This document shows positions 3,303 to 44,244 of a stretch of 64,000 nucleotides of DNA, piece after piece. The translations under genes and the position numbers were made by a program. Each line of letters begins with the position of its first letter. The stretch's first letter is position 1. Source of the stretch: Solirubrobacterales bacterium (GTDB lineage Bacteria > Actinomycetota > Thermoleophilia > Solirubrobacterales > Solirubrobacteraceae); assembly GCA_027315115.1 (NCBI GenBank), contig DAHUYQ010000010.1, positions 28,679-92,678 on the forward strand, written 5' to 3'. The notes beneath the pieces were generated by a model. That model did no database searches. It saw only the letters and a list, made by a program, of their open reading frames with translations, and was not told where the DNA came from.

Positions 3303-3369
3303 CTCCGGCCGGTTGCGCCGGGGAACGCCCGCCGGAGGCGCTGGCCTCGTAGACTTACGGTGTCGCCCT

Positions 3370-3460
3370 GGAGGGGTGGCAGAGCGGTTGAATGCGGCGG
3401 TCTCGAAAACCGTTTCGGGGGTCTAAACCTCCGACGAGGGTTCGAATCCCTCCCCCTCCG
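3370..3460 (+). tRNA. tRNA-Ser(CGA)
   Basis: Acceptor stem GGAGGGG/CCCCTCC, anticodon arm gcggt-CT-CGA-AA-accgt, long variable arm, GGTTCGAATCC T-arm; CCA not encoded. Confidence 0.97.
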
Positions 3461-3590
3461 TTGCCGGGCTTCGTGGGCCTGGATTGTGGCTCTACGGAGC
3501 CAAAACGTGGCCCTGCGATAGGGCAGGGGCGTTCGGCTCGTTTTCAAACCAAGGCACGCTACGGCAAGCTGGTGGCTCGGCCGCTGTCCA
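3458..3590 (+). repeat. Cassette leader repeat, copy 1 (starts at tRNA 3' end)
   Basis: Similar to 4604-4735; identical 25-bp core gttcggctcgttttcaaaccaaggc at 3531-3555 and 4675-4699; both begin ccGTTGCCGGGC. Confidence 0.85.
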
Positions 3591-6859: not shown

Positions 6860-7437
6860 GCGCCGGCGAGACGCATCCGCGCATCCTGCTCGTGACGGGA
6901 AGCACCCGCGGCGGGTCCACCAACACCGCCGCGTTGCGCTCGGTCGCCGACCCTGGCGGCCGAGCCGTCACGGAGCTCTTCGAGGGGCTCGCCGACCTGC
7001 CGGCTTTCAACCCGGACGACGACCGCGACCCGTTGCCCGCGAGCGTCGAGGCGCTGCGGTGCCAGATGGGGTCGGCTGCGGGAGTCCTGTTCTGCTCGCC
7101 AGAGTATGCCGGAGCGCTTCCGGGCAGCTTCAAGAACCTCCTCGACTGGATGGTCGGCGGAGGCGGTCTGTACGGCAAGCCGGTTGCGTGGATCAACGTC
7201 GCGGGCCCCGGCCGCGCCGCCGCCGCCGATCAATCGCTGGCGGTCGTGCTCGGGTATCTGGGAGCTGAGGTCGTAGAGGCCGCGTGCAGGCATGTCGTCG
7301 TGCCGCGCGATGCTGTGGGCGCCGATGGCCTGATCCGAGACGAGGCCCTGCGCGCCGATCTCGCCGAGGCGATGCGCGCATTCGTGGACCACATCGCGAG
7401 CGGATCGGACGCTCTCGATCCCGGGCGCTCTCCCTAG
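6856..7437 (+). CDS. NADPH-dependent FMN reductase
   Basis: GSTRGGSTN, SPEYAGALPGSFKNLLDW flavodoxin-like motifs. Confidence 0.9.
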   Translation: MSAGETHPRILLVTGSTRGGSTNTAALRSVADPGGRAVTELFEGLADLPAFNPDDDRDPLPASVEALRCQMGSAAGVLFCSPEYAGALPGSFKNLLDWMVGGGGLYGKPVAWINVAGPGRAAAADQSLAVVLGYLGAEVVEAACRHVVVPRDAVGADGLIRDEALRADLAEAMRAFVDHIASGSDALDPGRSP

Positions 7438-8234
7438 CCTCCCGCCAGCGCCCCGGCGTAGACCTGCCAGGCCAGCGCGCTCTTGGCCAGCAGGCTGAGC
7501 CAGAGGTAGGCGCGCTCGGCGAAGACAGGGTCGCGCCACGGGCCGATGCGCCGGTACTGGAGCCACATGTTGACCGCGAAGCTGCTGAAGAGGAGCAGCA
7601 GCGTGAAGAAGATCGCGAAGACGAACGCCGGGATGCGGCCGGTCTGCGCCTGGGAGACCGCGAGCTGGATGCCGATCGCGACCCAGGGCACGGCTCCCGC
7701 GACGCAGCCGAAGAGAAACGGCCGCCACTCCACGCGCTCGCGCCCGAGGTTGACCCGCTCCATCAGCAGGCCGAAGAGGATCATCGCCGCGTTGACGCCG
7801 AAGAGCGCGACCAGGGCCACCGCGGAGCTCACGCCGGCGAGCATCGCGATCAGGACGACCATCAGCGACGCGCTGATCGAGTACTCCCACCAGCGGGCCG
7901 GGTTGACGCCGCGCGCGACGTTGGCCTGATACCAGGCCCTCGCCCACGGGCTGGCCATCGCCAGGTGGTCGATCGCCGCAAGCGCGAGGAAGGCGGCGAC
8001 CGCGAGATCGATGCGCAGATCGAACAGCAGCACCGGCCCGCCGTAGCGGCCGGCGCCCGGCGGGCCGCGCATGTAGGTCAGATCGACCGGAAGCGAGACC
8101 GGCTTGGCCAGCGCCACGATCAGCAGCGCCTGCCCCAGATGGGCGAGCCCAACCAAAACATTCAGGCGCAGAAGCCGCTTGCGCGCCTGCGGCTCAAGCG
8201 GCGACGGGGCTCGCTCGGGTGCTGCCAGACCCAT
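7434..8234 (-). CDS. heR: Heliorhodopsin
   Basis: Seven TM segments; LAHLGQA and IDHL histidines, NPARWWEYSISASLM counterion Glu, AYLWLSLLAKSALAWQ retinal Lys. Confidence 0.93.
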   Translation of the reverse strand: MGLAAPERAPSPLEPQARKRLLRLNVLVGLAHLGQALLIVALAKPVSLPVDLTYMRGPPGAGRYGGPVLLFDLRIDLAVAAFLALAAIDHLAMASPWARAWYQANVARGVNPARWWEYSISASLMVVLIAMLAGVSSAVALVALFGVNAAMILFGLLMERVNLGRERVEWRPFLFGCVAGAVPWVAIGIQLAVSQAQTGRIPAFVFAIFFTLLLLFSSFAVNMWLQYRRIGPWRDPVFAERAYLWLSLLAKSALAWQVYAGALAGG

Positions 8235-8290
8235 GGATCGCATCTAAGCGGAGGCCGAGCTGGCGCGTCTCCCACTAAACTACGGGTTCT

Positions 8291-8364
<74 letters not shown>

Positions 8365-8588
8365 CTTCTTATTGGCTCTGCGAAGCCAAATCTGCGCCGC
8401 GATGGTGAGCGTCCGCGCTTCCGCTTCGCTGGGTGGGCATGCGCGTGAGCAGGGCATCCTCGTCGGTCGTCTGCAACGCTGGGCGCAGTCGTGGTGCTGC
8501 TGGCGGCGCTTGACCGCGTGCGCGACGAGCGTGACGATCCGCTGTTCCTGCTCAAGGGCGGCACGCACGCGATCCTCCGCGGCGGTCC

Positions 8589-9332
8589 TCACGGCGCGAA
8601 CGCCGCTTCCAACGCGGGCGTCACGTCGCGGTAGCCGCGAACCAGGTGCAGCCGGCCGCGACCAGCGAAGGCGAGGTCGCGCGCCATCTCGCGGTCGTGC
8701 TCGGTCGTCACGTCGCAGAGCACGTCGAGTCGGGGCAGCGCCGCCGCCAGCGGGCGCGGGTCTGGCCCGGCATTGTGGACGCAGTCGGAGAGCAGGACCG
8801 CGCGCGCCCCGCGCGCATCGAAGCTCGCGAGCGCGTCGGTCGCGAGCTCCAGCGGGAAGGCGATGTTGGTCAGTCCCCTGGCCGGCAGCGAGAGCAGCCG
8901 GTAGATCAGCTCCGGTGCGCTCAGCGGCTCGTCGGCCACCTGCAACCAGGCGGCGTCCGACCAGAAGGCCAGCACCGCCAGCCGGTCGTGCGTCAGCGCG
9001 CCGCTCAGAGCGCCGACGGTCGCCGCCGTCAGCCGCACTCGCTCGCCACGCATCGAGCCGGACACGTCGACCAGCAACACGACCGTGCGGCGCGCTCGCG
9101 CACGTTCGCGCACGACGATGTCGGACTGCTCCGGCAGCCGCTTGCCGGCGAGTCGCTCCAGCGTGCGCTCGAGGTCGATCTCATCTGACCGCAACCGGTA
9201 CGGCAGCGCCTGCGCCGGCGCGCGTGGCAGCGGTCGCGGCCGCTGCGCGCGCAGCTGATCTAGCGCCAACCGCACCGCGATGCTTCGCGCCGCATCGCGC
9301 GCCGCGCGGTCCTGCTCGTCGGTCCCGGCCAT
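8589..9332 (-). CDS. VWA-domain protein (frame stays open 75 codons upstream, up to the AAA stop)
   Basis: MIDAS VDVSGSM, LTNI, LLSDCVHNAG; DLERTLE pre-VWA segment. Confidence 0.88.
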   Translation of the reverse strand: MAGTDEQDRAARDAARSIAVRLALDQLRAQRPRPLPRAPAQALPYRLRSDEIDLERTLERLAGKRLPEQSDIVVRERARARRTVVLLVDVSGSMRGERVRLTAATVGALSGALTHDRLAVLAFWSDAAWLQVADEPLSAPELIYRLLSLPARGLTNIAFPLELATDALASFDARGARAVLLSDCVHNAGPDPRPLAAALPRLDVLCDVTTEHDREMARDLAFAGRGRLHLVRGYRDVTPALEAAFAP

Positions 9333-9557
9333 CGCCGCGATCGCGGCCTGCTCGCCGGTGATGACGGTGCTCGGGCGGCCGGAGAGCCGAGCGTGCGCGT
9401 CGCCCGCCGGCAGCTCGAGCAGGATCGTGCTGCCGTCCAGCTTGCGCGCCAGCGCGAGCTCGCTCGGACGCTGATCGAGCTGCTTTGGCCGGCGTCGCAG
9501 CGGGCGTGCGCCCCTGGTGCGCGGGCGACGCGGCAGGCAATCGCCGGCCGGCGCTCT

Positions 9558-10469
9558 TCAGCCCGGCGCCGTCGCCGGGCTGGGAATCAGAAGCTGTTCC
9601 CAGAGCTCGCGCAGGATCGCCTCGGGCGTCTGCTCGCAGACCGGGTCCAGGATGATGCGTCCGCCGAGTGCCACCAGCGCCGCGTCGAGCAGCAGCAGGC
9701 CGTAGCTCTCGTCTTCCGGCTCGCGCACATCGCGCATCGCTGCTAGCCCCAGCGCAAGAGCCGCGGTGTCGATCGCGCCGCGCACGCTCGCGCCCTGACG
9801 GATCAGCTCGTGCTCCCTGGTTGCGCGCGTGAGCGCGACCGCATGCTCGACGAGCCGACGATCGAGCGGCCGCCCGCGGTCCACCGGCGCGCGGCGGCAG
9901 ACGATCTCCGCCTCGGCCTGCGCGTCCTGGTAGCCGACCGCCAGCCGGCAGAGGCGATCGTGGATGCTCGCGGAAAGGCGGGTGGTGCCGATGTTGTCGA
10001 ACGGGTTCATCGAGGCGATCACGCGGAAGGAGTCGCGGGCGGCGATCGTGCCGACGCGCGGGATCTCCAGGGCGCGCTCGCCGATCGCCATCAGCAGCGC
10101 GTTCAGCGTCTCCTCGGGCGCCCGGTTGAGCTCCTCTATGTAGAGAAAGCCTCCTTCTCTCATCGCCTGCACCAGCGGTCCGGCGACGAAGTTCTCGGCC
10201 GTGTATCCCTCGCGCAGCACGCGCGCCGGGTCATGGTGCCCCACGAGCTTGGCGGGCGTCAGATCGCCGTTGCCTTCGACCAGCACCAGCGGGATCTGCC
10301 AGGCGCTGGTGATCGCCGCCAGCATCGTGGTCTTGCTGGTTCCCGGCGGCCCCTCGAGCACGATGTCCCGGCCGGTGGCGACCGTCGCCAGCACAAGCTC
10401 CAGCTCGGCCTCGCGGCCGACCAGCTCGGCAGCCACGCGCTCGCGGATCTGTGAGGCTCCCTGTAACAA
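9558..10469 (-). CDS. MoxR/chelatase-like AAA+ ATPase
   Basis: Walker A variant GPPGTSKT, Walker B variant FLYIEELNRA, ASMNP, DRL, SVRG. Confidence 0.88.
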   Translation of the reverse strand: MLQGASQIRERVAAELVGREAELELVLATVATGRDIVLEGPPGTSKTTMLAAITSAWQIPLVLVEGNGDLTPAKLVGHHDPARVLREGYTAENFVAGPLVQAMREGGFLYIEELNRAPEETLNALLMAIGERALEIPRVGTIAARDSFRVIASMNPFDNIGTTRLSASIHDRLCRLAVGYQDAQAEAEIVCRRAPVDRGRPLDRRLVEHAVALTRATREHELIRQGASVRGAIDTAALALGLAAMRDVREPEDESYGLLLLDAALVALGGRIILDPVCEQTPEAILRELWEQLLIPSPATAPG

Positions 10470-10472
10470 CCT

Positions 10473-10652
10473 CTAAGCGCAGCCGATGTCGTTGACCGCG
10501 GCGAGCGGTAGATGGTGGGCCTGCGCCTCGGCGTACAGCAGATCGAGCTGGGCGCGCGCCTTCAAGGGTCGCGCGGCGGCGACGCCGGCCAGGATGCTGA
10601 TCGCCGTGTTGATGGCGCGCGCGCAGGCCGGCTTCGACGCATCGCTGCTCAT
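10473..10652 (-). CDS. 59-aa hypothetical protein, loosely ANTAR-like
   Basis: 53/59 codons end in G/C (counted); INTAISIL...LDLLYAEAQ..HLPLAAV resembles ANTAR helices; same frame as the AAA gene. Confidence 0.55.
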   Translation of the reverse strand: MSSDASKPACARAINTAISILAGVAAARPLKARAQLDLLYAEAQAHHLPLAAVNDIGCA

Positions 10653-10706
10653 CGACGCATTGTCAGGCCTGTGCCCGCGGCGGCGAGTTGAACCGCCCGC
10701 GGCGCG

Positions 10707-10722
10707 TTGGAGCCGATTACAA
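10707..10722. promoter_or_regulatory. TTGK-N8-MCAA palindrome (putative PucR/CdaR-type site)
   Basis: TTGG-agccgatt-ACAA in the divergent gap before the acyl-CoA dehydrogenase. Confidence 0.6.
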
Positions 10723-10795
10723 ACGCGCCGGCTCCAGGCGCCAGGGCGAGCGCCGAGGCGGCGGTATGGTCGCCGCCGCAAACCAAGGAGCCGCG

Positions 10796-12073
10796 ATGAC
10801 ATGGGATTTCTCGACAGAGCCGGAGTGGGAGCAGGAGCTCGACTGGATGCGCGACCTGATGCGGGAGGAGGTCCTGCCGCTGGAGAGCCTGGGCCTCGAC
10901 CATCAGACCTTCATGAAGGCGATTCGCCCGCTGCAGGAGCGCGTCAAGGCGCGGGGGCTGTGGGCCGCGCACCTCGGACCGGAGCTTGGCGGCGCCGGCT
11001 TTGGGCAGGTCAAGCTGGCGCTGATGCACGAGGTGCTCGGAGCGTCCGAGCTCGGGCCGCCGGTGTTCGGCAACCAGGCACCGGACTCGGGGAACATCGA
11101 GCTGATGGCGATCGCCGCGAACGAGGAGCAGCGCGAGCGCTGGCTGGCGCCGTTGCTCGGCGGCGAGGTCCTGAGCGCCTTCTCGATGACCGAGCTGGGC
11201 ACCGGCTCCGACCCCAGGCAGTTCAAGACGCGCGCGGTGCGCGAGGGCGACGAGTGGGTGATCGACGGCACCAAGTGGTTCGTCTCCAACGCCGACCGCA
11301 GCGCCTTTCACATCGTGATGTGCGTGACAGACCCCGATGCGGACCCCTATCGGGGCCAGTCGATGATTATCGTGCCGACCGACGCGCCCGGAATCGAGAT
11401 GCGTAAGCTCGGCATCCTCAACGACCCCCACCACGTCGGGCCGGTCCACGACCACTGCGAAGTCAACTATCGCGGCGTGCGGGTTCCCGCCGGAAACCTC
11501 CTTGGGGAGCAGGGCGGCGCCTTCACGCTCGCGCAGAAGCGGCTTGGACCTGGGCGCATCCACCACTGCATGCGCTGGCTGGGCGTGGCCAGACGTGCCT
11601 TCGACGCCATGTGCGAGCGCGCCGTCTCGATGAGCGTGCACGGGAGCCTGCTCGCGGAGAAGGAGTTCATCCAGGACTTCATCGCGCTCTCGGCGGCCGA
11701 GATCGCGGCGGCACGGCTGCTGACAATAAACACCGCCTGGAAGATCGATCAGGTGGGCGCCTCCAACTGCCGCGTGGAGATCTCGATGATCAAGTACCAC
11801 GGCGCAAAGGTCCTGCACAACGTGCTGGATCGCTCGATCCAGGTGCACGGATCGCTGGGGCTCTCGACCGACATGCCGCTGCAGGAGATGTACGCCTACT
11901 CGCGCTCTGCCCGCATGTACGACGGGCCGGACGAGGTGCACAAGGCGACCGCCGCCCGGCTGATCGCGCGCCAGTACGCGCCGCGCGAGGTCCCGACCGA
12001 TCACATTCCGACGCGTCGCGCGGCCGCGCTGGAGAAGTACCGTGACCTGTTCGACCTCGTCTCGGCGCAGTAG
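10796..12073 (+). CDS. Acyl-CoA dehydrogenase (ACAD10/11 / LvaC-like subfamily)
   Basis: NQAPDSGNIE, AFSMTE, QKRLGPGRIHHCMR, RMYDGPDEVH; aaggag SD upstream. Confidence 0.92.
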   Translation: MTWDFSTEPEWEQELDWMRDLMREEVLPLESLGLDHQTFMKAIRPLQERVKARGLWAAHLGPELGGAGFGQVKLALMHEVLGASELGPPVFGNQAPDSGNIELMAIAANEEQRERWLAPLLGGEVLSAFSMTELGTGSDPRQFKTRAVREGDEWVIDGTKWFVSNADRSAFHIVMCVTDPDADPYRGQSMIIVPTDAPGIEMRKLGILNDPHHVGPVHDHCEVNYRGVRVPAGNLLGEQGGAFTLAQKRLGPGRIHHCMRWLGVARRAFDAMCERAVSMSVHGSLLAEKEFIQDFIALSAAEIAAARLLTINTAWKIDQVGASNCRVEISMIKYHGAKVLHNVLDRSIQVHGSLGLSTDMPLQEMYAYSRSARMYDGPDEVHKATAARLIARQYAPREVPTDHIPTRRAAALEKYRDLFDLVSAQ

Positions 12074-15189: not shown

Positions 15190-16029
15190 ATGAGCAGTCT
15201 CGAGGGCAAGGTCGCGTTCATCACCGGAGCCGCGCGTGGCCAGGGCCGCAACCATGCGGTGCGCCTCGCCGAACGGGGGGTGGACATCATCGCGCTCGAC
15301 ATCAATCGTTCGATCGACACGGTGCCATACGCCGGTCCCAGCCCCGCGGACCTTGCCGAGACGGTGCGGCAGGTCGAGGCGCTCGATCGTCGCATCGTGG
15401 CGCGCGAGGCCGACGTGCGCGACCTGGCCGCGGTGCGCGCGATCGTCGACGAGGGCGTGGCCGAGCTCGGCCGCCTCGACATCGTGGTCGCAAACGCGGG
15501 CGTGGCCTCGACCTCGCCCGCGCGCGAGATGAGCGAGCAGATGTGGCGTGAGATGATCGACATCAACCTCCACGGGCCCTGGCACGCGGTCACCAGCGCG
15601 CTGCCGCACCTGAAGGCCGACGGCAGCGGTGGCGCGATCGTGCTGATCGGCTCGGTGGCGAGCTTCGAAGGGCTGCCCAACCTCGTCCACTACAACGCCG
15701 CCAAGCATGGTGTGCTCGGCATCATGCGCACGCTGGCCAACGAGCTTGGCCCCGAGAGCATTCGGGTCAACGCCGTGTGCCCGACGAACGTCGCCACCGA
15801 CATGGTGATCAACGAGCACATCATGAAGCTCTTCATGCCTGAGCTCGAGCGACCCACGCGCGAGGACGCCGAAAAGCCGGACTCGGCCTACCGGGCATTG
15901 AACGCGATCCCGGTGCCGTGGATCGAGGTGGACGATGTCACCAACGCGATCCTGTTCCTCGTCTCCGACGAGGCGCGGTACGTTACCGGCGTCGCGCTGC
16001 CTGTCGACGCGGGCTTTCTGGTGAAGTGA
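15190..16029 (+). CDS. Mycofactocin-coupled SDR oxidoreductase (carveol-dehydrogenase-like)
   Basis: ITGAARGQGRNHAVRLA, the IDTVPY..PADLAET insertion typical of the subfamily, HYNAAKHG. Confidence 0.9.
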   Translation: MSSLEGKVAFITGAARGQGRNHAVRLAERGVDIIALDINRSIDTVPYAGPSPADLAETVRQVEALDRRIVAREADVRDLAAVRAIVDEGVAELGRLDIVVANAGVASTSPAREMSEQMWREMIDINLHGPWHAVTSALPHLKADGSGGAIVLIGSVASFEGLPNLVHYNAAKHGVLGIMRTLANELGPESIRVNAVCPTNVATDMVINEHIMKLFMPELERPTREDAEKPDSAYRALNAIPVPWIEVDDVTNAILFLVSDEARYVTGVALPVDAGFLVK

Positions 16030-38383: not shown

Positions 38384-39772
38384 TCAGCCGCGCCCCACCG
38401 AGAGCACCGGCAGCAGCGCCCGCGTCTGGCGGTGCGCGATCGCCCCCCGCCAGACGCCTGCCGCGTAGGCGAGGTCGTCCAGGAGCCCGAGCGCCGCGGC
38501 CCGCAACAGGTCCAGCTCTCCGCTTGCGCGAGCCTGGAGCAGCGCCGGCAGCGTGAGCAGGCCAAGCACGGCCCGCGCCCTCCGGCGCGTGACGATCATC
38601 AGGACCGCCGGCACGCCAAGGGTGTCCGCGGGGCTGCCGAGACGCAGCAGCGTCTGACCGCTCGCCTTGGCAAACCAGCCGGCGGCGGCGTCGAGCGGCA
38701 CTCCACGCCGGCGCGTGCCGCGCGCGAACAGCAGGCCGTCGGCGAGCACGAGCGCCGCGCCCAGCCTCGGGCGACCGCAGAGCGCGAGCGCCGTGCCGGC
38801 CACCGCCGCTCGCCGTAGCGCCGACGGCGCGACCCGGCGGCCGTGGCGGGCGGCCAGTGGCCCCGCCGAGCAGCCGTAGTGGAAGCGCCTGGCCAGCATC
38901 GCCGCGAGCGTCGAGGGCTCGTCGTGCTCCACGGTCACGGAGGGGTCGTACCGGACGCTCCATCCCGCATCGTGCAGGCGCCAGACGAGGTCGACGTCCT
39001 CTCCGTAGCGCAGTGACTCGTCGAAGCCCTGGCCGAGCGCGGACCTGCGCACAAGCAGCGCAGCGCTCGGCACGTATGCGACCGCCGCGCCGGGCCGCAC
39101 GGCGGCGGGGCGCGCGCCCATGTCCAGCGGGCTGCGGGCGGCGAGGTAGGAAGCGATCGCACGGCGTCGGCGCCGCGGCGCGCTGGCGCCGGCCGGCCGC
39201 ACGCGCGGCGCGACCGCCCCGAGCGCCGGGTCCGCGAAGTGCCCGACCAGCAGGCGCAGCCAGTCGCGCGAGGGCACGCAGTCGCTGTCCAGGAACGCGA
39301 CTATCTCGCTCTCCATCCCATCCAGCGCCGCGTTGCGTGCCGCGGCCGGGCCGCCGGAGCACGGGCGCCGTATGAGCCGGGCGCCGTGACGCGCGGCGAT
39401 CGCCGCGATCGCCTCGCCCTGCTGCTGGGAGCCGTCATCCACGATCCTCACGGCAACGCCCTCCTCCAGCGCCTCCAGGCAGCGGGCGAGCTGCCGGGCT
39501 CGATCCCGCACCGGGATCACCACGGTGACCAGCTCACGCGGATCGTGCGGCGCCGGGTGCGGGTGTGCGACGCCCGCGTCCAGCAGCCGTCGCGCCAGCA
39601 GCCGCGCGGCCGGAGACTCGGCGCGGCCCTGCGCAAGCTCCTGCAACGCCTGCCGGCCAGCGGTCGAGAGCCGCAGCAGGCGGCGCGGCGATCCGCCGAT
39701 CAGCACCCCGTCGGTTTCGTGCCGCAAGCGGCCATCCAGGGTGACCTTCAGCCCGGCGGGCAGCGGTCTCAC
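38384..39772 (-). CDS. mftF: Mycofactocin glycosyltransferase MftF
   Basis: GGSPRRLLRL N-terminus, GT2 motifs VIPVRDR, VDDGS, AFLDSD, YVPSAALLVR, GEDVDL; position in the mft operon. Confidence 0.93.
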   Translation of the reverse strand: MRPLPAGLKVTLDGRLRHETDGVLIGGSPRRLLRLSTAGRQALQELAQGRAESPAARLLARRLLDAGVAHPHPAPHDPRELVTVVIPVRDRARQLARCLEALEEGVAVRIVDDGSQQQGEAIAAIAARHGARLIRRPCSGGPAAARNAALDGMESEIVAFLDSDCVPSRDWLRLLVGHFADPALGAVAPRVRPAGASAPRRRRRAIASYLAARSPLDMGARPAAVRPGAAVAYVPSAALLVRRSALGQGFDESLRYGEDVDLVWRLHDAGWSVRYDPSVTVEHDEPSTLAAMLARRFHYGCSAGPLAARHGRRVAPSALRRAAVAGTALALCGRPRLGAALVLADGLLFARGTRRRGVPLDAAAGWFAKASGQTLLRLGSPADTLGVPAVLMIVTRRRARAVLGLLTLPALLQARASGELDLLRAAALGLLDDLAYAAGVWRGAIAHRQTRALLPVLSVGRG

Positions 39773-40587
39773 AGCGCCAAGCCGCCGTCGACCGCGACGT
39801 CCGCGCCGGTCATCGCGCTTCCGTTTGGTCCCGCGAGCCAGGCGATCATCGCGGCGATCTCCTCCGGCTCCAGCAGGCGCTGGATCGGCTGCTGGGCGGC
39901 GAACTGCTCGCCGGAGGAGAGGTCGTAGAGGCGCGCGCTCTCCCTCAGGATCACGGTGTCCGTGGCCCCGGGGCTGACGGTGTTCACGGTCACGCCGCTG
40001 CCGCGAAGCTCCAGCGCCAGCGCTCGCGCCATGCCGGTGATGCCGGCCTTCGCCGCGCAGTAGGCCGCGAGCATCGGCATCCCGCGGGAGGCGGCGGTCG
40101 AGGCGACCGCGACCAGGCGCCCGGACCGCGGCTGCGGCCGGCGCAGCAGAGCCGGTATGCCGACGCGAGCCGCTGTGAGCGCGCTGCCGAGATTGCCCTC
40201 GATCACCGCGGCGAGCTGCTCGCTCGGCATCTCCCAGAGCGGAACCCCGCCGGCGATCACGCCCGCGGCCGCCACGATCACCTCGACGCCGCCGTGGTCG
40301 CGCTCGGCCGCGGCGATCACCTGCTCCATCTCCGCTGCGTCGCGCGCGTCCGCGAAGGCAGCCTGCACTCGCTCGCACCCTGTCGACTCCACGACCGCCG
40401 CGAGCTCCTCGCGCGTGCCGAGCGCATAGGGCAGCCGCGGGTCATCCTCGCCACGGTCGACCGCGACCACGCTCCAGCCGTCGAGCGCGAGCGCGCGCAC
40501 CGTCGCCGCGCCGATGCCGCGTGCGGCGCCGGTCACGATCGCGGCGCCTCTCGCAGGCGCCTTCGTGCGTGCACGCTCCCCGCTCAT
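39769..40587 (-). CDS. Mycofactocin-system SDR oxidoreductase
   Basis: TGAARGIG, DDPRLPYALGT insertion, YCAAK; lies between mftE and mftF. Confidence 0.9.
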   Translation of the reverse strand: MSGERARTKAPARGAAIVTGAARGIGAATVRALALDGWSVVAVDRGEDDPRLPYALGTREELAAVVESTGCERVQAAFADARDAAEMEQVIAAAERDHGGVEVIVAAAGVIAGGVPLWEMPSEQLAAVIEGNLGSALTAARVGIPALLRRPQPRSGRLVAVASTAASRGMPMLAAYCAAKAGITGMARALALELRGSGVTVNTVSPGATDTVILRESARLYDLSSGEQFAAQQPIQRLLEPEEIAAMIAWLAGPNGSAMTGADVAVDGGLAL

Positions 40588-41270
40588 GCGCTCGACCAGT
40601 TGTCCAGCAGGTCGAGCATCTGGCGGGTCGCGTGGTCGAGCAGCATGCGGCCGTGCTCCGCTGTGGCGCCGGTGGGATCGCCGAGCACGCCGTTGGGGCT
40701 CACGCTGCGCACGCCCTCGCGCGCCAGCCGCGGCAGGATCTTGCCCAGCGGGGCGCGCTCGCCGGGCTCGGCCAACTCCAGGCGCACCCGCGAGGGATCC
40801 AGCGCGAGCATGATCGAGGTCTCGACATGCCCGGCATGCGCGTCGCCGGGCAAGCGCGGGAAGAAGGCGCGCACGTCGCGTCCCTCGGCGCGCAGGCGCC
40901 GCTCGGCGTTGTGGACGGCCTCGCTGTTGCCGCCATGCGTCGAGACGATCAGCATCCGCGAGAACCGCTCGATCGCCGAGCGTCCGAGCTCCACGAGCAG
41001 CAGCTCGATCGCTTCGGAGCCGATCGAGAGCGTGCCGGCGAAGGCTGCGTGCTCGCCGCTGGAGCCGTAGGCGACTGGCGGCGCGACGACCACGCCGCCG
41101 CGCCTGCCGGCCAGTCGGAAGGCGAGTGCCTGGGCGATGTCGGTGTCGGTCGAGAGCGGCAGATGACGCCCATGCTGCTCGGTCGCGCCCACCGGCACCG
41201 CCAGCAGCGCCCCGCCGGAGGCGAAGTCGTCGGCGTCCACCCAGGTGAGCTCGCCCAGCGCCGTGCTCAT
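40584..41270 (-). CDS. mftE: Mycofactocin peptidase MftE (creatininase family)
   Basis: PVGATEQHGRHLPLSTDT, GSSGEH, HGGN, DAHAGHVETS, SPNGVLGDP. Confidence 0.95.
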   Translation of the reverse strand: MSTALGELTWVDADDFASGGALLAVPVGATEQHGRHLPLSTDTDIAQALAFRLAGRRGGVVVAPPVAYGSSGEHAAFAGTLSIGSEAIELLLVELGRSAIERFSRMLIVSTHGGNSEAVHNAERRLRAEGRDVRAFFPRLPGDAHAGHVETSIMLALDPSRVRLELAEPGERAPLGKILPRLAREGVRSVSPNGVLGDPTGATAEHGRMLLDHATRQMLDLLDNWSSA

Positions 41271-42466
41271 CCGGCCGCTTGCACCTCTTCCCTCTCGCCG
41301 CCCAGCCGCCGGACGAACCCCTCTGGGACCAGGACGTCGCTTGCCCGCAGCGAGCCGACCGAGTCGCGCGCGAGCCCCAGCAGCGCCGAGTCGATCCCGC
41401 CGCGCAGGATGTCGAGCACGTTCTCGACCCCGGCCTGGCCGTTTGCCGCAAGGCCCCACAGGTAGGGGCGGCCGATCATCACCGCTCTGGCGCCGAGCGC
41501 GAGCGCCTTCACCACGTCCGCGCCGCGGCGGATGCCGCCGTCCAGCAGCACCTCCACGCGATCACCGACGGCGTCGACGATCGCCGGCAGCGCGCGGATC
41601 GAGGCCGGGGTGCCGTCGAGGTTGTTGCCTCCGTGGTTGGAGACCGAGATCGCGCTCGCGCCGATCTCCGCCGCCCGCCGCGCGTCGTCGACGCGCATGA
41701 TCCCCTTGATCATCAGCGGCCCGTCCCACTGCTCGCGCAGCCACCGCAGGTCCTCCCAGGAGGGCGGCGGCGTCTGCATCCACTCGCCGTATGCCTCGAA
41801 GAACCTCGGTGGCGCCTCTCCGGGCAGCGCCATGTTGGGGACCGTCAGGTCTGGTGGCCCTCCGGCGCGCAGCCAGCCGGCCAGCCACCTCGGTCGCGAG
41901 AGCGCGGAGGGCGCCAGGCGCAGCATCGCCGCGACGCTCATGCTCTCCGGGATCTGCGGGCTGCCCCAGTCGCGCGCGTGGGAGAAGGTCCAGTCGAGAG
42001 TCACGATCAGGCCCGCGGCGCCGGCCTGTCGCGCGCGTGCCAGTCGCTCCGAGATCCGCTCCCGCGCACCGGCCCAGTAGACCTGCATGAACGTCTTCGG
42101 GTTGACGGCCAGCACATCCTCGATCGGACTGCTCGCGAACGCGCTCAGTCCCATCGCCGTGCCGCGCGCGGCGGCGGCACGGGCGACGGCGACCTCGCCT
42201 TCTGGATGCACCGCCTGCACGCCGACCGGCGAGATCAGCACCGGCAGCGCGATCTGCTGTCCCATCGCCGTCGTCGCGATCTGGCGTTGCGCAGGGGCGC
42301 CCGCGACGTGCGGCGCGAAGCCGAGATCCCCGAAGGCGGCGGTGTTCGATGCCAGCGTGACGCCTGCCTCCGCCCCCGCGCGAAGCGCCATGTAGACCGA
42401 GCGCGGCAGCGCCCGCTCGGCGCGCCGCTGCGCCTCGGCGACGCTCTCGAACCATCCTCCCGGCAT
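41267..42466 (-). CDS. mftD: Mycofactocin FMN-dependent deaminase MftD
   Basis: WFESVAEAQRRA, SPVGVQAVHP, HARDWGSP, SVSNHGGNNLDG, LDGGIRRG. Confidence 0.96.
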   Translation of the reverse strand: MPGGWFESVAEAQRRAERALPRSVYMALRAGAEAGVTLASNTAAFGDLGFAPHVAGAPAQRQIATTAMGQQIALPVLISPVGVQAVHPEGEVAVARAAAARGTAMGLSAFASSPIEDVLAVNPKTFMQVYWAGARERISERLARARQAGAAGLIVTLDWTFSHARDWGSPQIPESMSVAAMLRLAPSALSRPRWLAGWLRAGGPPDLTVPNMALPGEAPPRFFEAYGEWMQTPPPSWEDLRWLREQWDGPLMIKGIMRVDDARRAAEIGASAISVSNHGGNNLDGTPASIRALPAIVDAVGDRVEVLLDGGIRRGADVVKALALGARAVMIGRPYLWGLAANGQAGVENVLDILRGGIDSALLGLARDSVGSLRASDVLVPEGFVRRLGGEREEVQAAG

Positions 42467-43722
42467 CAGGGCGCTCGCAGGCCGGTCGATGCGTGAGCGG
42501 GCTCGCGGCGGTCCGGGCCCACAGGGCTCTGGTCGCACAGGCGAGAGGGCGGGGACTCGATCACCGGAGAGGGCGGGGACTCGATCACCGGCAGCCTGCG
42601 CGGCGCGCGTCGGGAGGGCCGCCGCTTGGACATGTCCACCGATGGCATCGGCCGCGGTCCTTTCCCGTGTGCCGCCAGCGCCCGCTCGCCGTGGCCGAGC
42701 ACGCACTCCGGGTCGGGCCCCTGCAGAGGCAGGCCGGTGAAGAACTTGGCGGCCATGCAGCCGCCGCGGCACGCGTCGAAGAAGCCGCAGCTCCCACACG
42801 CCCCCGCCGACTGGGGCTCTCGCAGCTCCCGCAGCAGCGCCGAGTCTCGCCAGACGCCGGCGAAGCCTCCGGGCTCGCGCACGTTGCCGGCCAGGAACTG
42901 CTCGTGGATCGCGAAGGGGCAGGCGTACACGTCGCCGACCGGGTCGATCAGGCAGACCACGCGGCCGGCTCCGCACATGTTCAGGCCCGGCAGCGCCTGC
43001 CCGTATGCGGATAGGTGAAAGAAGGAGTCTCCCGTGAGAACCTGCTCGCCCTGCGCCAGCAGCCAGGCATGCACCTCGCGCTGCTGCTCGGCCGTCAGCC
43101 GCAACTGGTCCCACACCTGCGCGCCGCGCCCGGATGGACGCAGGCGCGTGAGCCGAAGCTGCGCCCCGAAGCGGTCGGCGATCGCCTTCAGCGCGTCGAG
43201 CTGCCCGGCGTTCTCCCGCGTCAGCACGGTGGAGACCTTGAACTCGCCGAAGCCCGCCTCGGCGAGGTTGCTCATCGCGTCGACCGCCGTCTGGAAGGAG
43301 CCCTGCCCGCGCACCGCGTCGTTGACCTCCGCGGTGGCGCCGTCGATGGAGATCTGCACGTCGACGTAGTCGCAGGCCGCAAGCCGCGCCGCGGCCTGGG
43401 CATCGATGCGGCTGCCGTTGGTCGAGAACTTCACCCCCACGTCGTGGGCCTGCGCGTGGTCGAGCAGCTCCCAGAAGTCACGCCGCACGGTCGGCTCTCC
43501 GCCGCCGATGTTCACGTAGAAGACCTGCATCCGCTGCAGCTCCTCGATCACCGCCTTGCACTCCCGCGTGCTCAGCTCGCGCGGGTCGCGCCGCCCCGAG
43601 CTGGAGAGGCAGTGCGCGCACGCGAGGTTGCAGGCGTAGGTCAGCTCCCAGGTCAGGCAGATCGGCGCGTCGAGACCGGCTTCGAAGTGCTCGACGAGGC
43701 TCCTGGCCGTCGCGGCGCTCAT
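42466..43722 (-). CDS. mftC: Mycofactocin radical SAM maturase MftC
   Basis: APICLTWELTYACNLACAHC, SPASM CGAGRVVCLID, C..C..FDACRGGCMAAK, DPEC. Confidence 0.97.
   Translation of the reverse strand: MSAATARSLVEHFEAGLDAPICLTWELTYACNLACAHCLSSSGRRDPRELSTRECKAVIEELQRMQVFYVNIGGGEPTVRRDFWELLDHAQAHDVGVKFSTNGSRIDAQAAARLAACDYVDVQISIDGATAEVNDAVRGQGSFQTAVDAMSNLAEAGFGEFKVSTVLTRENAGQLDALKAIADRFGAQLRLTRLRPSGRGAQVWDQLRLTAEQQREVHAWLLAQGEQVLTGDSFFHLSAYGQALPGLNMCGAGRVVCLIDPVGDVYACPFAIHEQFLAGNVREPGGFAGVWRDSALLRELREPQSAGACGSCGFFDACRGGCMAAKFFTGLPLQGPDPECVLGHGERALAAHGKGPRPMPSVDMSKRRPSRRAPRRLPVIESPPSPVIESPPSRLCDQSPVGPDRREPAHASTGLRAP
42543..42590. repeat. 24-bp tandem duplication in the mftC tail
   Basis: gagagggcggggactcgatcaccg x2 (encodes PVIESPPS x2). 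Confidence 0.85.
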
Positions 43723-44006
43723 GCCGACGCGCCTTTTTGAGGATGGATCATGCCGGCGGCGGCGAGGCTTGCGAGCGCCCGCGCGAAGCGCGGCATCTCC
43801 TGCTCGCAGACGCCGGCCGCCAGGCATGCCTCGCGCGCGGTCGCGCGCGTCCCGAGCGTCCTGGCCACCTCATGCAGGCGGCGGTCCTTGAGAAAGCTCA
43901 GGCGGCGCGTTCCGAAGTGGTAGGCCAGCGCGCCGAAGCGCTCCGGTCGCAGCGCGACCTGAGAATCGAGTCGCCAGGCGCGATCGAGGTCGATGTGGGC
44001 CGACAC
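43719..44006 (-). CDS. mftB: Mycofactocin chaperone MftB (RRE)
   Basis: QVALRPERFGALAYHFGTRRLSFLK. Confidence 0.95.
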   Translation of the reverse strand: MSAHIDLDRAWRLDSQVALRPERFGALAYHFGTRRLSFLKDRRLHEVARTLGTRATAREACLAAGVCEQEMPRFARALASLAAAGMIHPQKGASA

Positions 44007-44014
44007 GGCTGCCC

Positions 44015-44176
44015 TCAATAGACGCCGCACATGCCGTCGATCGAGACTTCCTCGACGAGCAGGTCTTCGAGCACCAGAGCGTCGTCCGACTCGCCCGCGG
44101 TCGCGACGGCGTGTACGCGGACTTGCTCCGGCGCCTCGGGCGTCGCCAGGTCTGCCTCCAGGGTCTTCTCAGTCAT
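44015..44176 (-). CDS. mftA: Mycofactocin precursor peptide MftA
   Basis: Ends LLVEEVSIDGMCGVY; start MTEK at 44176 (or MEDP at 44188). Confidence 0.97.
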   Translation of the reverse strand: MTEKTLEADLATPEAPEQVRVHAVATAGESDDALVLEDLLVEEVSIDGMCGVY

Positions 44177-44244
44177 GGGATCCTCCATCCTCTTCTTGCG
44201 GCCGCGGATCCACCGGGGCTGCGTTCTCAATACAGCTACCATGT

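Follow-up and report, generated by a model that had tools for sequence, protein, structure and literature searches.

The stretch of DNA analysed here (hereafter the window: 64,000 nucleotides from a Solirubrobacterales bacterium, assembly GCA_027315115.1, contig DAHUYQ010000010.1, positions 28,679 to 92,678) carries on its minus strand a gene encoding an AAA ATPase and a gene encoding a protein with a VWA domain, which share one reading frame and are separated by a single TGA codon. Comparison with related loci suggests that these two open reading frames (ORFs) probably form one translational unit with a conserved programmed UGA readthrough site. In 159/159 loci (83 genomic ones, including that of the window, and 76 metagenomic ones), TGA occupied the homologous position and was followed by AGA or AGG. 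The initial annotation of the window had proposed that a short AAA protein and a long AAA-VWA protein are produced via UGA readthrough; the comparative test supports this proposal, and from it we infer the readthrough itself.

Organization of the AAA-VWA Locus

The AAA ORF (9558..10469, minus strand, as for all features of the locus) encodes 303 amino acids from the TTG start given in the ORF list. Its translation, Pfam matches, structural model and fold matches identify it as a MoxR-class AAA+ ATPase (see below), which would be the short product. It ends with ATAPG followed by the TGA (9560-9558) that we propose as the recoding codon. An AGA Arg codon comes right after this TGA (9555..9557) and provides the A at position +4. 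The AAA frame then remains open for exactly 75 codons (9557-9333), none of which is ATG, GTG or TTG, up to the ATG at 9332 with which the VWA ORF begins in the ORF list. From this first canonical start the VWA ORF (8589..9332) encodes 247 amino acids, matches VWA_2 and VWA_CoxE in Pfam and would form the C-terminal part of the long product. On re-reading, the layout given in the initial annotation proved exact, and the coding-like composition that it had reported after the stop was also recovered: the GC content at third codon positions (GC3) was 0.88 over the 75 codons, with 0.89 in the AAA part and 0.90 in the VWA part.

The locus lies in a region of 72-76% GC. From base composition alone, the chance of a 75-codon gap that is at once in the same frame, free of stops and free of starts is about 0.008. 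The open frame by itself is unremarkable (P of about 0.29 for 75 codons in DNA of 72-75% GC), so that the local observation is merely suggestive and the weight of the argument comes from the comparison with other loci.

The Same Junction in Related Loci

We began with three loci retrieved by protein identity. Each of them has the junction ...PG TGA AGR GCN GTG... and keeps its AAA and VWA genes in the same frame. We next assembled a genomic sample of 80 loci from species-representative genomes, chosen solely by their similarity to the VWA part, of which 79 were analysable (the remaining one, L101, runs off the 5' end of its sequence). In 79/79 the VWA frame ran upstream into exactly one stop, which was always TGA, and Walker A was present upstream in the same frame in 74/79. 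Across the 83 junctions made of these 79 loci, the three fetched ones and the window, the five bases TGAAG were invariant. A second, independent sample comprised 80 metagenomic loci, 74 of them analysable by motif search; the same junction was found in 73/74, and the remaining exception, together with two loci missed by the motif search, also read TGA-AGA (76/76). This junction census covers part of the 395 and 452 relatives that were positive in tblastn.

Variation around the junction was limited. A GPT-TGA-AGA subtype occurred in two loci (L144 and L184). In a metagenomic locus on a 2.2-kb contig (L164), PG-TGA-AGR was kept but the VWA domain lay in another frame, probably as the result of an indel. 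An assembly error at the TGA of the window is very unlikely because the whole family carries TGA at this position. The homologues thus carry TGA in frame with a conserved downstream peptide that includes the RRxPKQL motif, as the initial annotation had suggested checking. It had also named three outcomes that would speak for another explanation (a frame not conserved across the stop, a conserved start belonging to the VWA gene, or a sense codon in all homologues), none of which was obtained. As a side observation, the AAA gene of one metagenomic homologue (L021:1051-2994) is broken by an insertion sequence encoding a DDE_Tnp_1 transposase of 290 amino acids; its PG-TGA-AGA-GCC-GTG junction and VWA gene are intact despite this element.

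Coding Signal and Start Codons Past the Stop

The 75 codons had been taken for a linker. We searched proteins with the 322-amino-acid translation that begins right behind the TGA and extends to the last codon of the VWA ORF, and retrieved thousands of stand-alone proteins, named "vWA domain-containing" and 305-335 amino acids long, with 94-100% query cover and about 50-55% identity; among proteins of stand-alone size, 2,383 relatives were found at E <= 0.001. The supposed linker aligned with the conserved N-terminus of these free-standing VWA proteins, so that the 75 codons (9333..9557) are genuine coding sequence for the N-terminal region of the VWA module, which is more than a linker. The motif PLRRKPKQL (PLRRRPKQL in the window, 9477..9503) was found 18-28 codons past the TGA in most loci, and R22, P24, K25, L27 and P31 of this region were invariant in our alignment A1.

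The peptide located right after the stop is itself conserved (R-[AE]-[VI]-[EPA]-A-D-[ST]-P-...). In the 51 loci without an early start, the ratio of nonsynonymous to synonymous polymorphism (pN/pS) was 0.49 over the first 11 codons after the TGA, close to the 0.43 obtained just upstream of it, and it reached 0.9-1.6 in the other two frames. No locus had a frame-0 stop within 24 codons after the TGA, and the pattern of third-position variability continued unbroken across the TGA in the 83 junctions. Purifying selection thus extends past the stop. The conservation of this peptide and its low pN/pS where early starts are lacking indicate that the sequence beyond the TGA is translated, and in most species it is unreachable from a start codon of its own.

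The position at which an independent start would be expected was rather variable. ATG, GTG or TTG occupied the third codon after the TGA (+3) in 21/83 genomic and 28/74 metagenomic loci. Across the 83 loci this codon was GTC in 43, GTG in 18 and ATC in nine, and GTG made up 0.28 of the Val codons at +3 versus 0.48 elsewhere in the same genes. Close relatives toggle between start and non-start codons at this position (GTG, GTT or GTC in Agromyces, ATG or ATC in sister Leucobacter strains). Codon +3 thus looks like an ordinary Val/Ile codon whose function as a start is not conserved. A GAAGRG sequence was considered as a Shine-Dalgarno-like ribosome-binding site for a start at +3 and rejected, as +3 is not conserved as a start and the spacing of 3-4 nucleotides was judged too short. 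The first canonical start lay beyond the PLRRKPKQL motif in 28/72 loci in which the motif was located (up to 34/83 overall), and 85-106 codons downstream of the TGA in some loci. Most homologues have no start codon of their own in this conserved sequence, one of the outcomes by which the homologue test proposed in the initial annotation supports readthrough. In the window, the start-codon scan returned a single near-cognate candidate upstream of the PLRRKPKQL motif, an in-frame CTG at codon 8 after the TGA (9534..9536), which aligns roughly with the ATG of homologues annotated from MRRPGP.... The family thus presents the arrangement of readthrough genes, that is, a second ORF in the same frame behind one stop, no conserved initiation codon, and coding conservation past the stop.

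Identity and Context of the Stop Codon

To evaluate the constancy of the junction, we compared it with a matched control, the codon that actually terminates the VWA gene in each of the 83 loci. These true stops were TGA in 71 cases, TAG in nine and TAA in three (12/83 TAG or TAA), whereas the junction stop was always TGA. An A followed only 6/71 of the true TGA stops, in contrast to the junction, where it followed the TGA in every locus. The Arg codon after the junction TGA was always AGA or AGG, although AGR represents 5.7% of the Arg codons elsewhere in these genes; we interpret the use of rare codons for this conserved Arg in every case as a consequence of the maintenance of the A at +4. 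In a distant fused relative with a sense codon at the TGA position (L114), the next Arg codon is CGG. In Escherichia coli and yeast, tRNA-Trp is reported to misread UGA with particular ease when the next base is A (PMC5289835, citing Engelberg-Kulka, 1981). The leaky UGA-A context put forward in the initial annotation thus has a published basis, and the identity and 3' context of the junction stop, compared with the true VWA stops, are those of a stop selected for leakiness.

We did not recover any RNA element around the stop. RNAalifold found zero conserved pairs between -24 and +75, the downstream fold in the window was no better than that of shuffled sequence (z = -1.04), and the search for Rfam matches downstream of the stop returned only noise.

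A NorQ/CbbQ-Like ATPase and Its VWA Partner

The AAA ORF matched AAA_5 (PF07728) with 82.1 bits, for a cut-off of 22, and AAA_3 with 50 bits. The Walker motifs GPPGTSKT (Walker A, 10329..10352) and LYIEE were invariant in the alignments, the columns of the former in both A2 and A4. In the VWA part, the DVSGSM, GLTN and SDC motifs of the metal ion-dependent adhesion site (MIDAS) were invariant; DVSGSM is located at 9051..9068 and corresponds to D164, S166, G167, S168 and M169 of alignment A1. An AlphaFold2 model of the readthrough product of the window, built from 57 aligned readthrough translations, had a mean predicted local distance difference test (pLDDT) score of 77.8. The AAA module (residues 1-295) and the VWA domain (419-626) were modelled with confidence, residues 297-320 around the stop were disordered (pLDDT of about 30) and the motif region was intermediate (64-74). 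The region encoded by the 75 codons could thus serve as a flexible tether in the long product.

The best Foldseek matches of the AAA module were NorQ (9qh9/9qh4) and CbbQ (6l1q/5c3c), with E values of 1e-16 to 1e-11 and target TM scores of 0.77-0.84. The ATPase therefore belongs to the NorQ/CbbQ-like MoxR class and not to ChlD, as shown by the AAA_5 score above the gathering threshold, the similarity of fold, and the pairing with a VWA protein whose MIDAS is intact. In the best-matching NorQ system, one NorD binds one NorQ hexamer (PMC9976466). Chelatase models all scored below their cut-offs (PF01078, 17.5 versus 20.3 bits; TIGR02442, 46 versus 779; CobT_C, 17.6 versus 21), and on model scores and fold we reject the assignment to ChlD. 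The neighbouring genes that we saw were mycofactocin genes, short-chain dehydrogenases/reductases (SDRs) and an FMN dehydrogenase, with no chelatase gene among them, no search having been aimed at ChlH or CobN. The likeness to ChlD/BchD drawn in the initial annotation is thus to be read as an analogy.

Phylogeny and Fused Relatives

In the tree, the TGA-type loci formed one well-supported clade, whose labels name 11 actinobacterial families, beside a clade of fused proteins. Some labels are likely wrong because of bin contamination or mislabelling: a contig from a "Mucilaginibacter" metagenome-assembled genome (MAG; L041) groups with Microbacteriaceae, and a "Rhodococcus" MAG (L082) is tagged Cyanobacteriota in the tree labels. 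The copy of the window has a long branch (1.2), is at most 58% identical to any relative and is sister to a Solirubrobacteraceae MAG. Its N-terminal post-TGA peptide is more diverged and lacks the usual Val codon at +3. No orthologue was detected in 40 relatives of the genome of the window (24 of them from the same genus), which returned distant AAA paralogues only, and the metagenome scan yielded no closer relative above about 55% identity over the full length.

This distant clade, a large one (37-41% identity; Pseudonocardia and others), has the same architecture in a single protein of 600-650 amino acids. The two distant fused loci that we inspected (L195 and L196) have no adjacent AAA-only gene. 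In both, the fused AAA-VWA gene (617-619 amino acids) lies directly downstream of a Zn-dependent alcohol dehydrogenase gene, which suggests a dehydrogenase-specific helper. Closer to the TGA clade, only two fused proteins were found in a search of 5.8 billion proteins, compared with the 2,383 relatives of stand-alone size. In Microbacterium kribbense (L113:3001-4983), which nests in the TGA clade beside Gryllotalpicola, the junction reads GGG CCG ACC TCA AGA and yields a fusion of 660 amino acids. The TCA (Ser) is a one-base change of TGA and, if not a sequencing error, makes this locus a useful natural control. The fusion is thus viable yet rare in the TGA clade, which indicates that the stop has been kept, as a leaky in-frame TGA-A. 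Such retention is the pattern that would be expected if both the short and the long products were needed.

Proposed Mechanism

We propose that ribosomes start at the AAA gene and that most of them would terminate at the UGA (9560-9558), releasing a ring-forming NorQ/CbbQ-like MoxR ATPase of about 33 kDa. A minority would decode the UGA in its UGA-A context by a near-cognate tRNA, most likely tRNA-Trp, and continue for 322 further in-frame codons. The long product would have 626 amino acids, with the UGA as residue 304, and would comprise the AAA module, a flexible tether and the VWA/MIDAS domain. Its tryptic junction peptide in the window would be ELWEQLLIPSPATAPG-X-R, where X is W, C, R or G. 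Long and short forms could co-assemble into a ring bearing a sub-stoichiometric, covalently tethered VWA adaptor, in a geometry similar to that of one NorD per NorQ hexamer. The readthrough frequency would then set the short-to-long ratio, as frameshifting does in chlD, a low rate giving a low adaptor-to-motor ratio. The occurrence of readthrough, the amino acid inserted, its efficiency, the stoichiometry of the ring and the client are all points that we infer.

Several observations weigh against this scheme. Its support is comparative, and the leakiness of UGA-A was described in E. coli and yeast, outside the Actinomycetota. Because the loci share no stimulatory RNA structure past the stop, readthrough could proceed at only basal efficiency. 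About one quarter to one third of the loci have GTG or ATG at +3, from which the VWA protein could be made separately by translational coupling, and in the window the in-frame CTG eight codons past the stop could act as a weak start. Finally, all TGA-type loci belong to one clade, so the 159 observations are not independent origins and their conservation partly reflects inheritance. The argument for readthrough rests instead on the absence of turnover at the junction, relative to the matched control, over a long divergence.

Alternative Explanations

The main rival of programmed readthrough is that two separate proteins are made, with the UGA acting as a full stop and the VWA protein being started just downstream, either by reinitiation coupled to termination or at a non-canonical start codon. 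In that case an old gene fission would have left behind the shared frame and the six-base gap, and the existence of a fused sister clade makes such a fission by point mutation plausible. Gene callers do annotate full-length VWA proteins from GTG, ATG or TTG at +3 in the loci that have them (21/83 and 28/74, as above), and the window offers its CTG at 9536-9534. We nevertheless consider this explanation unlikely. Codon +3 is not conserved as a start, being mostly GTC, which differs from AUG at two positions, or ATC, with GTG under-used; in many loci the first usable start lies past the conserved motif, up to 106 codons into the region, and in the window all 75 codons are free of ATG, GTG and TTG. 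A relic of fission would also leave the invariant A at +4, the rare AGR codons and the exclusive use of TGA unexplained. A cause private to the window, such as a nonsense mutation, pseudogene decay or an assembly error within a horizontally acquired locus, could account for the lack of an orthologue in its 40 relatives, for the long branch and low identity of its copy and for the divergence of its post-TGA peptide with the missing Val codon. It is very improbable, since PG-TGA-AGA is the universal state of the family and nothing is "broken" in the window with respect to its homologues: the catalytic and MIDAS motifs are all kept, the frame is intact and GC3 is steady at 0.88-0.90.

The UGA could also be used in another manner. 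Decoding as selenocysteine (Sec) had been raised in the initial annotation as an alternative to readthrough, and the genome of the window indeed contains selA (449 bits) and a tRNA-Sec (64 bits) close together (contig C35, 64733-67760), so that this organism can make selenoproteins. A second match to the tRNA-Sec model above the cut-off (contig C24, 32048-32137) corresponds to the tRNA-Ser(CGA) of the window (3369-3461). The distribution of selA rules out Sec decoding as the mechanism of the family: selA is present in 4/26 genomes carrying the same TGA junction and absent from the other 22. No hairpin of the Sec insertion sequence (SECIS) type is conserved downstream of the stop, as neither the alignment, the fold of the window nor Rfam revealed any structure there; the codon falls in a predicted disordered tether and not in a catalytic site, and the relatives with a sense codon at this position have Ser or Glu, not Cys. 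We give very little credence to Sec insertion even in the window. Alternatively, the ribosome could hop over the UGA by in-frame bypassing or otherwise skip it unconventionally, with no amino acid inserted. The product would be almost indistinguishable from that of readthrough, and Atkins et al. (2016; PMC5009743) mention that stop hopping may underlie some cases now thought to be readthrough. We regard it as hardly probable, because no conserved matching pair of take-off and landing codons surrounds the stop (GGN TGA AGR GNN) and no natural case is known (PMC5009743).

Mycofactocin Genes and Other Neighbours

In 54 of the 80 genomic loci, MftC or the MftD-type FMN dehydrogenase has a homologue within 2.5 kb, and an SDR homologue is present in 70 of the 80; individual loci carry genes for MftA, radical SAM/SPASM proteins, FMN_dh, GT2 or TetR nearby. 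The window itself contains a complete mycofactocin cluster on the minus strand (38384-44242), about 30 kb from the AAA-VWA pair. It comprises MftA (its C-terminal 23 amino acids, within 44015-44242), MftB (43719-44030), MftC (42466-43827), MftD (41267-42496), a mycofactocin-coupled SDR (about 39772-40540) and MftF (38384 to about 39800). Another mycofactocin-coupled SDR (15190-16029, plus strand; TIGR03971, 385 bits) is 58% identical to the SDR adjoining the AAA-VWA pair in Agromyces (L020). An acyl-CoA dehydrogenase gene lies next to the AAA-VWA pair of the window. The VWA gene is closely followed, past a tRNA-Arg(ACG) (8291-8365, plus strand), by a heliorhodopsin gene (7434-8243, minus strand; PF18761, 285 bits). 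On the other side of the pair, a 109-amino-acid ORF without Pfam match (10473-10802, minus strand) ends with a TAG, and three bases separate it from the TTG at which the AAA ORF starts; this ORF may open the operon or have arisen by chance in DNA of high GC content.

From this gene neighbourhood, the likely clients of the AAA-VWA machine would be mycofactocin-linked dehydrogenases, and a role in the maturation or reactivation of mycofactocin-dependent dehydrogenases is a reasonable guess. We tentatively extend this proposal, with somewhat less than an even chance of being correct, to a model in which the VWA adaptor would never be a free protein and would occur only as the UGA-readthrough extension of its own ATPase, the efficiency of termination at UGA-A setting the motor-to-adaptor ratio of a mycofactocin-linked chaperone.

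Relation to Known Systems and Implications

Viruses and eukaryotes offer well-established examples of programmed stop-codon readthrough. Outside Sec, this process is to our knowledge nearly unknown for conserved bacterial chromosomal genes. In phage Q-beta, leaky readthrough of the UGA of the coat protein gene by tRNA-Trp produces the A1 protein. The mechanism proposed here is similar, with low-frequency decoding of UGA by a normal tRNA giving a second, C-terminally extended product. Known bacterial examples of UGA read as Trp are from phages or sporadic, whereas the present site belongs to a chromosomal family and is conserved across many actinobacterial families. Our loci also share with bacterial selenoprotein genes an in-frame UGA conserved among homologues, in a genome that can make Sec in the case of the window; they differ from them by the lack of SECIS-like structure, the absence of selA from most carriers, the location of the codon in a predicted disordered tether and the Ser or Glu of the sense variants.

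The NorQ/NorD and CbbQ/CbbO pairs include the best fold matches of the AAA module and likewise associate the ATPase with a partner bearing a VWA-MIDAS domain. Their adaptor is a separate protein that has its own start and carries a large domain at its N-terminus, in contrast to the N-terminus proposed here to be covalently continuous with the C-terminus of one ATPase subunit, and the clients in our family would be linked to mycofactocin. The closest parallel in gene expression is the frameshifted chlD of Mg/Co-chelatases (Antonov et al., 2013; Kuznetsov, Milenkin and Antonov, 2022, PMC9227772; reviewed in PMC5009743). There, as proposed here, one gene gives short AAA+ and long AAA+-linker-VWA subunits by means of a recoding signal that is conserved where the two domains meet. 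In chlD, this signal is a frameshift at the slippery sequence A_AAA_AAR between two frames, unlike the present junctions, which have a single frame split by UGA and no slippery run; the ATPase here is moreover of the NorQ/CbbQ-like AAA_5 type, with chelatase scores below cut-off. A ratio of short to long product set by recoding also recalls retroviral gag-pol, in which it is fixed by in-frame readthrough or frameshifting in related elements (PMC5009743), although gag-pol is viral and eukaryotic and has stimulatory pseudoknots, of which we saw no equivalent.

We found no prior description of UGA readthrough in an AAA-VWA gene in the literature covered, subscription-only papers lying outside this coverage. 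The site is sharply defined: PG-UGA-AGR, without RNA structure, kept in every locus examined, with labels from 11 actinobacterial families. If our interpretation is correct, it would be a case of chromosomal programmed readthrough independent of Sec and conserved across a large part of Actinomycetota, and readthrough would join frameshifting as a way for one gene to supply both AAA+ and AAA+-VWA subunits. It would account for the incorporation of a sub-stoichiometric adaptor into a MoxR ring, and would set right thousands of "vWA domain-containing protein" annotations in which the start is at present a guess. It would also reveal that the mycofactocin redox system has a so far unstudied helper machine.

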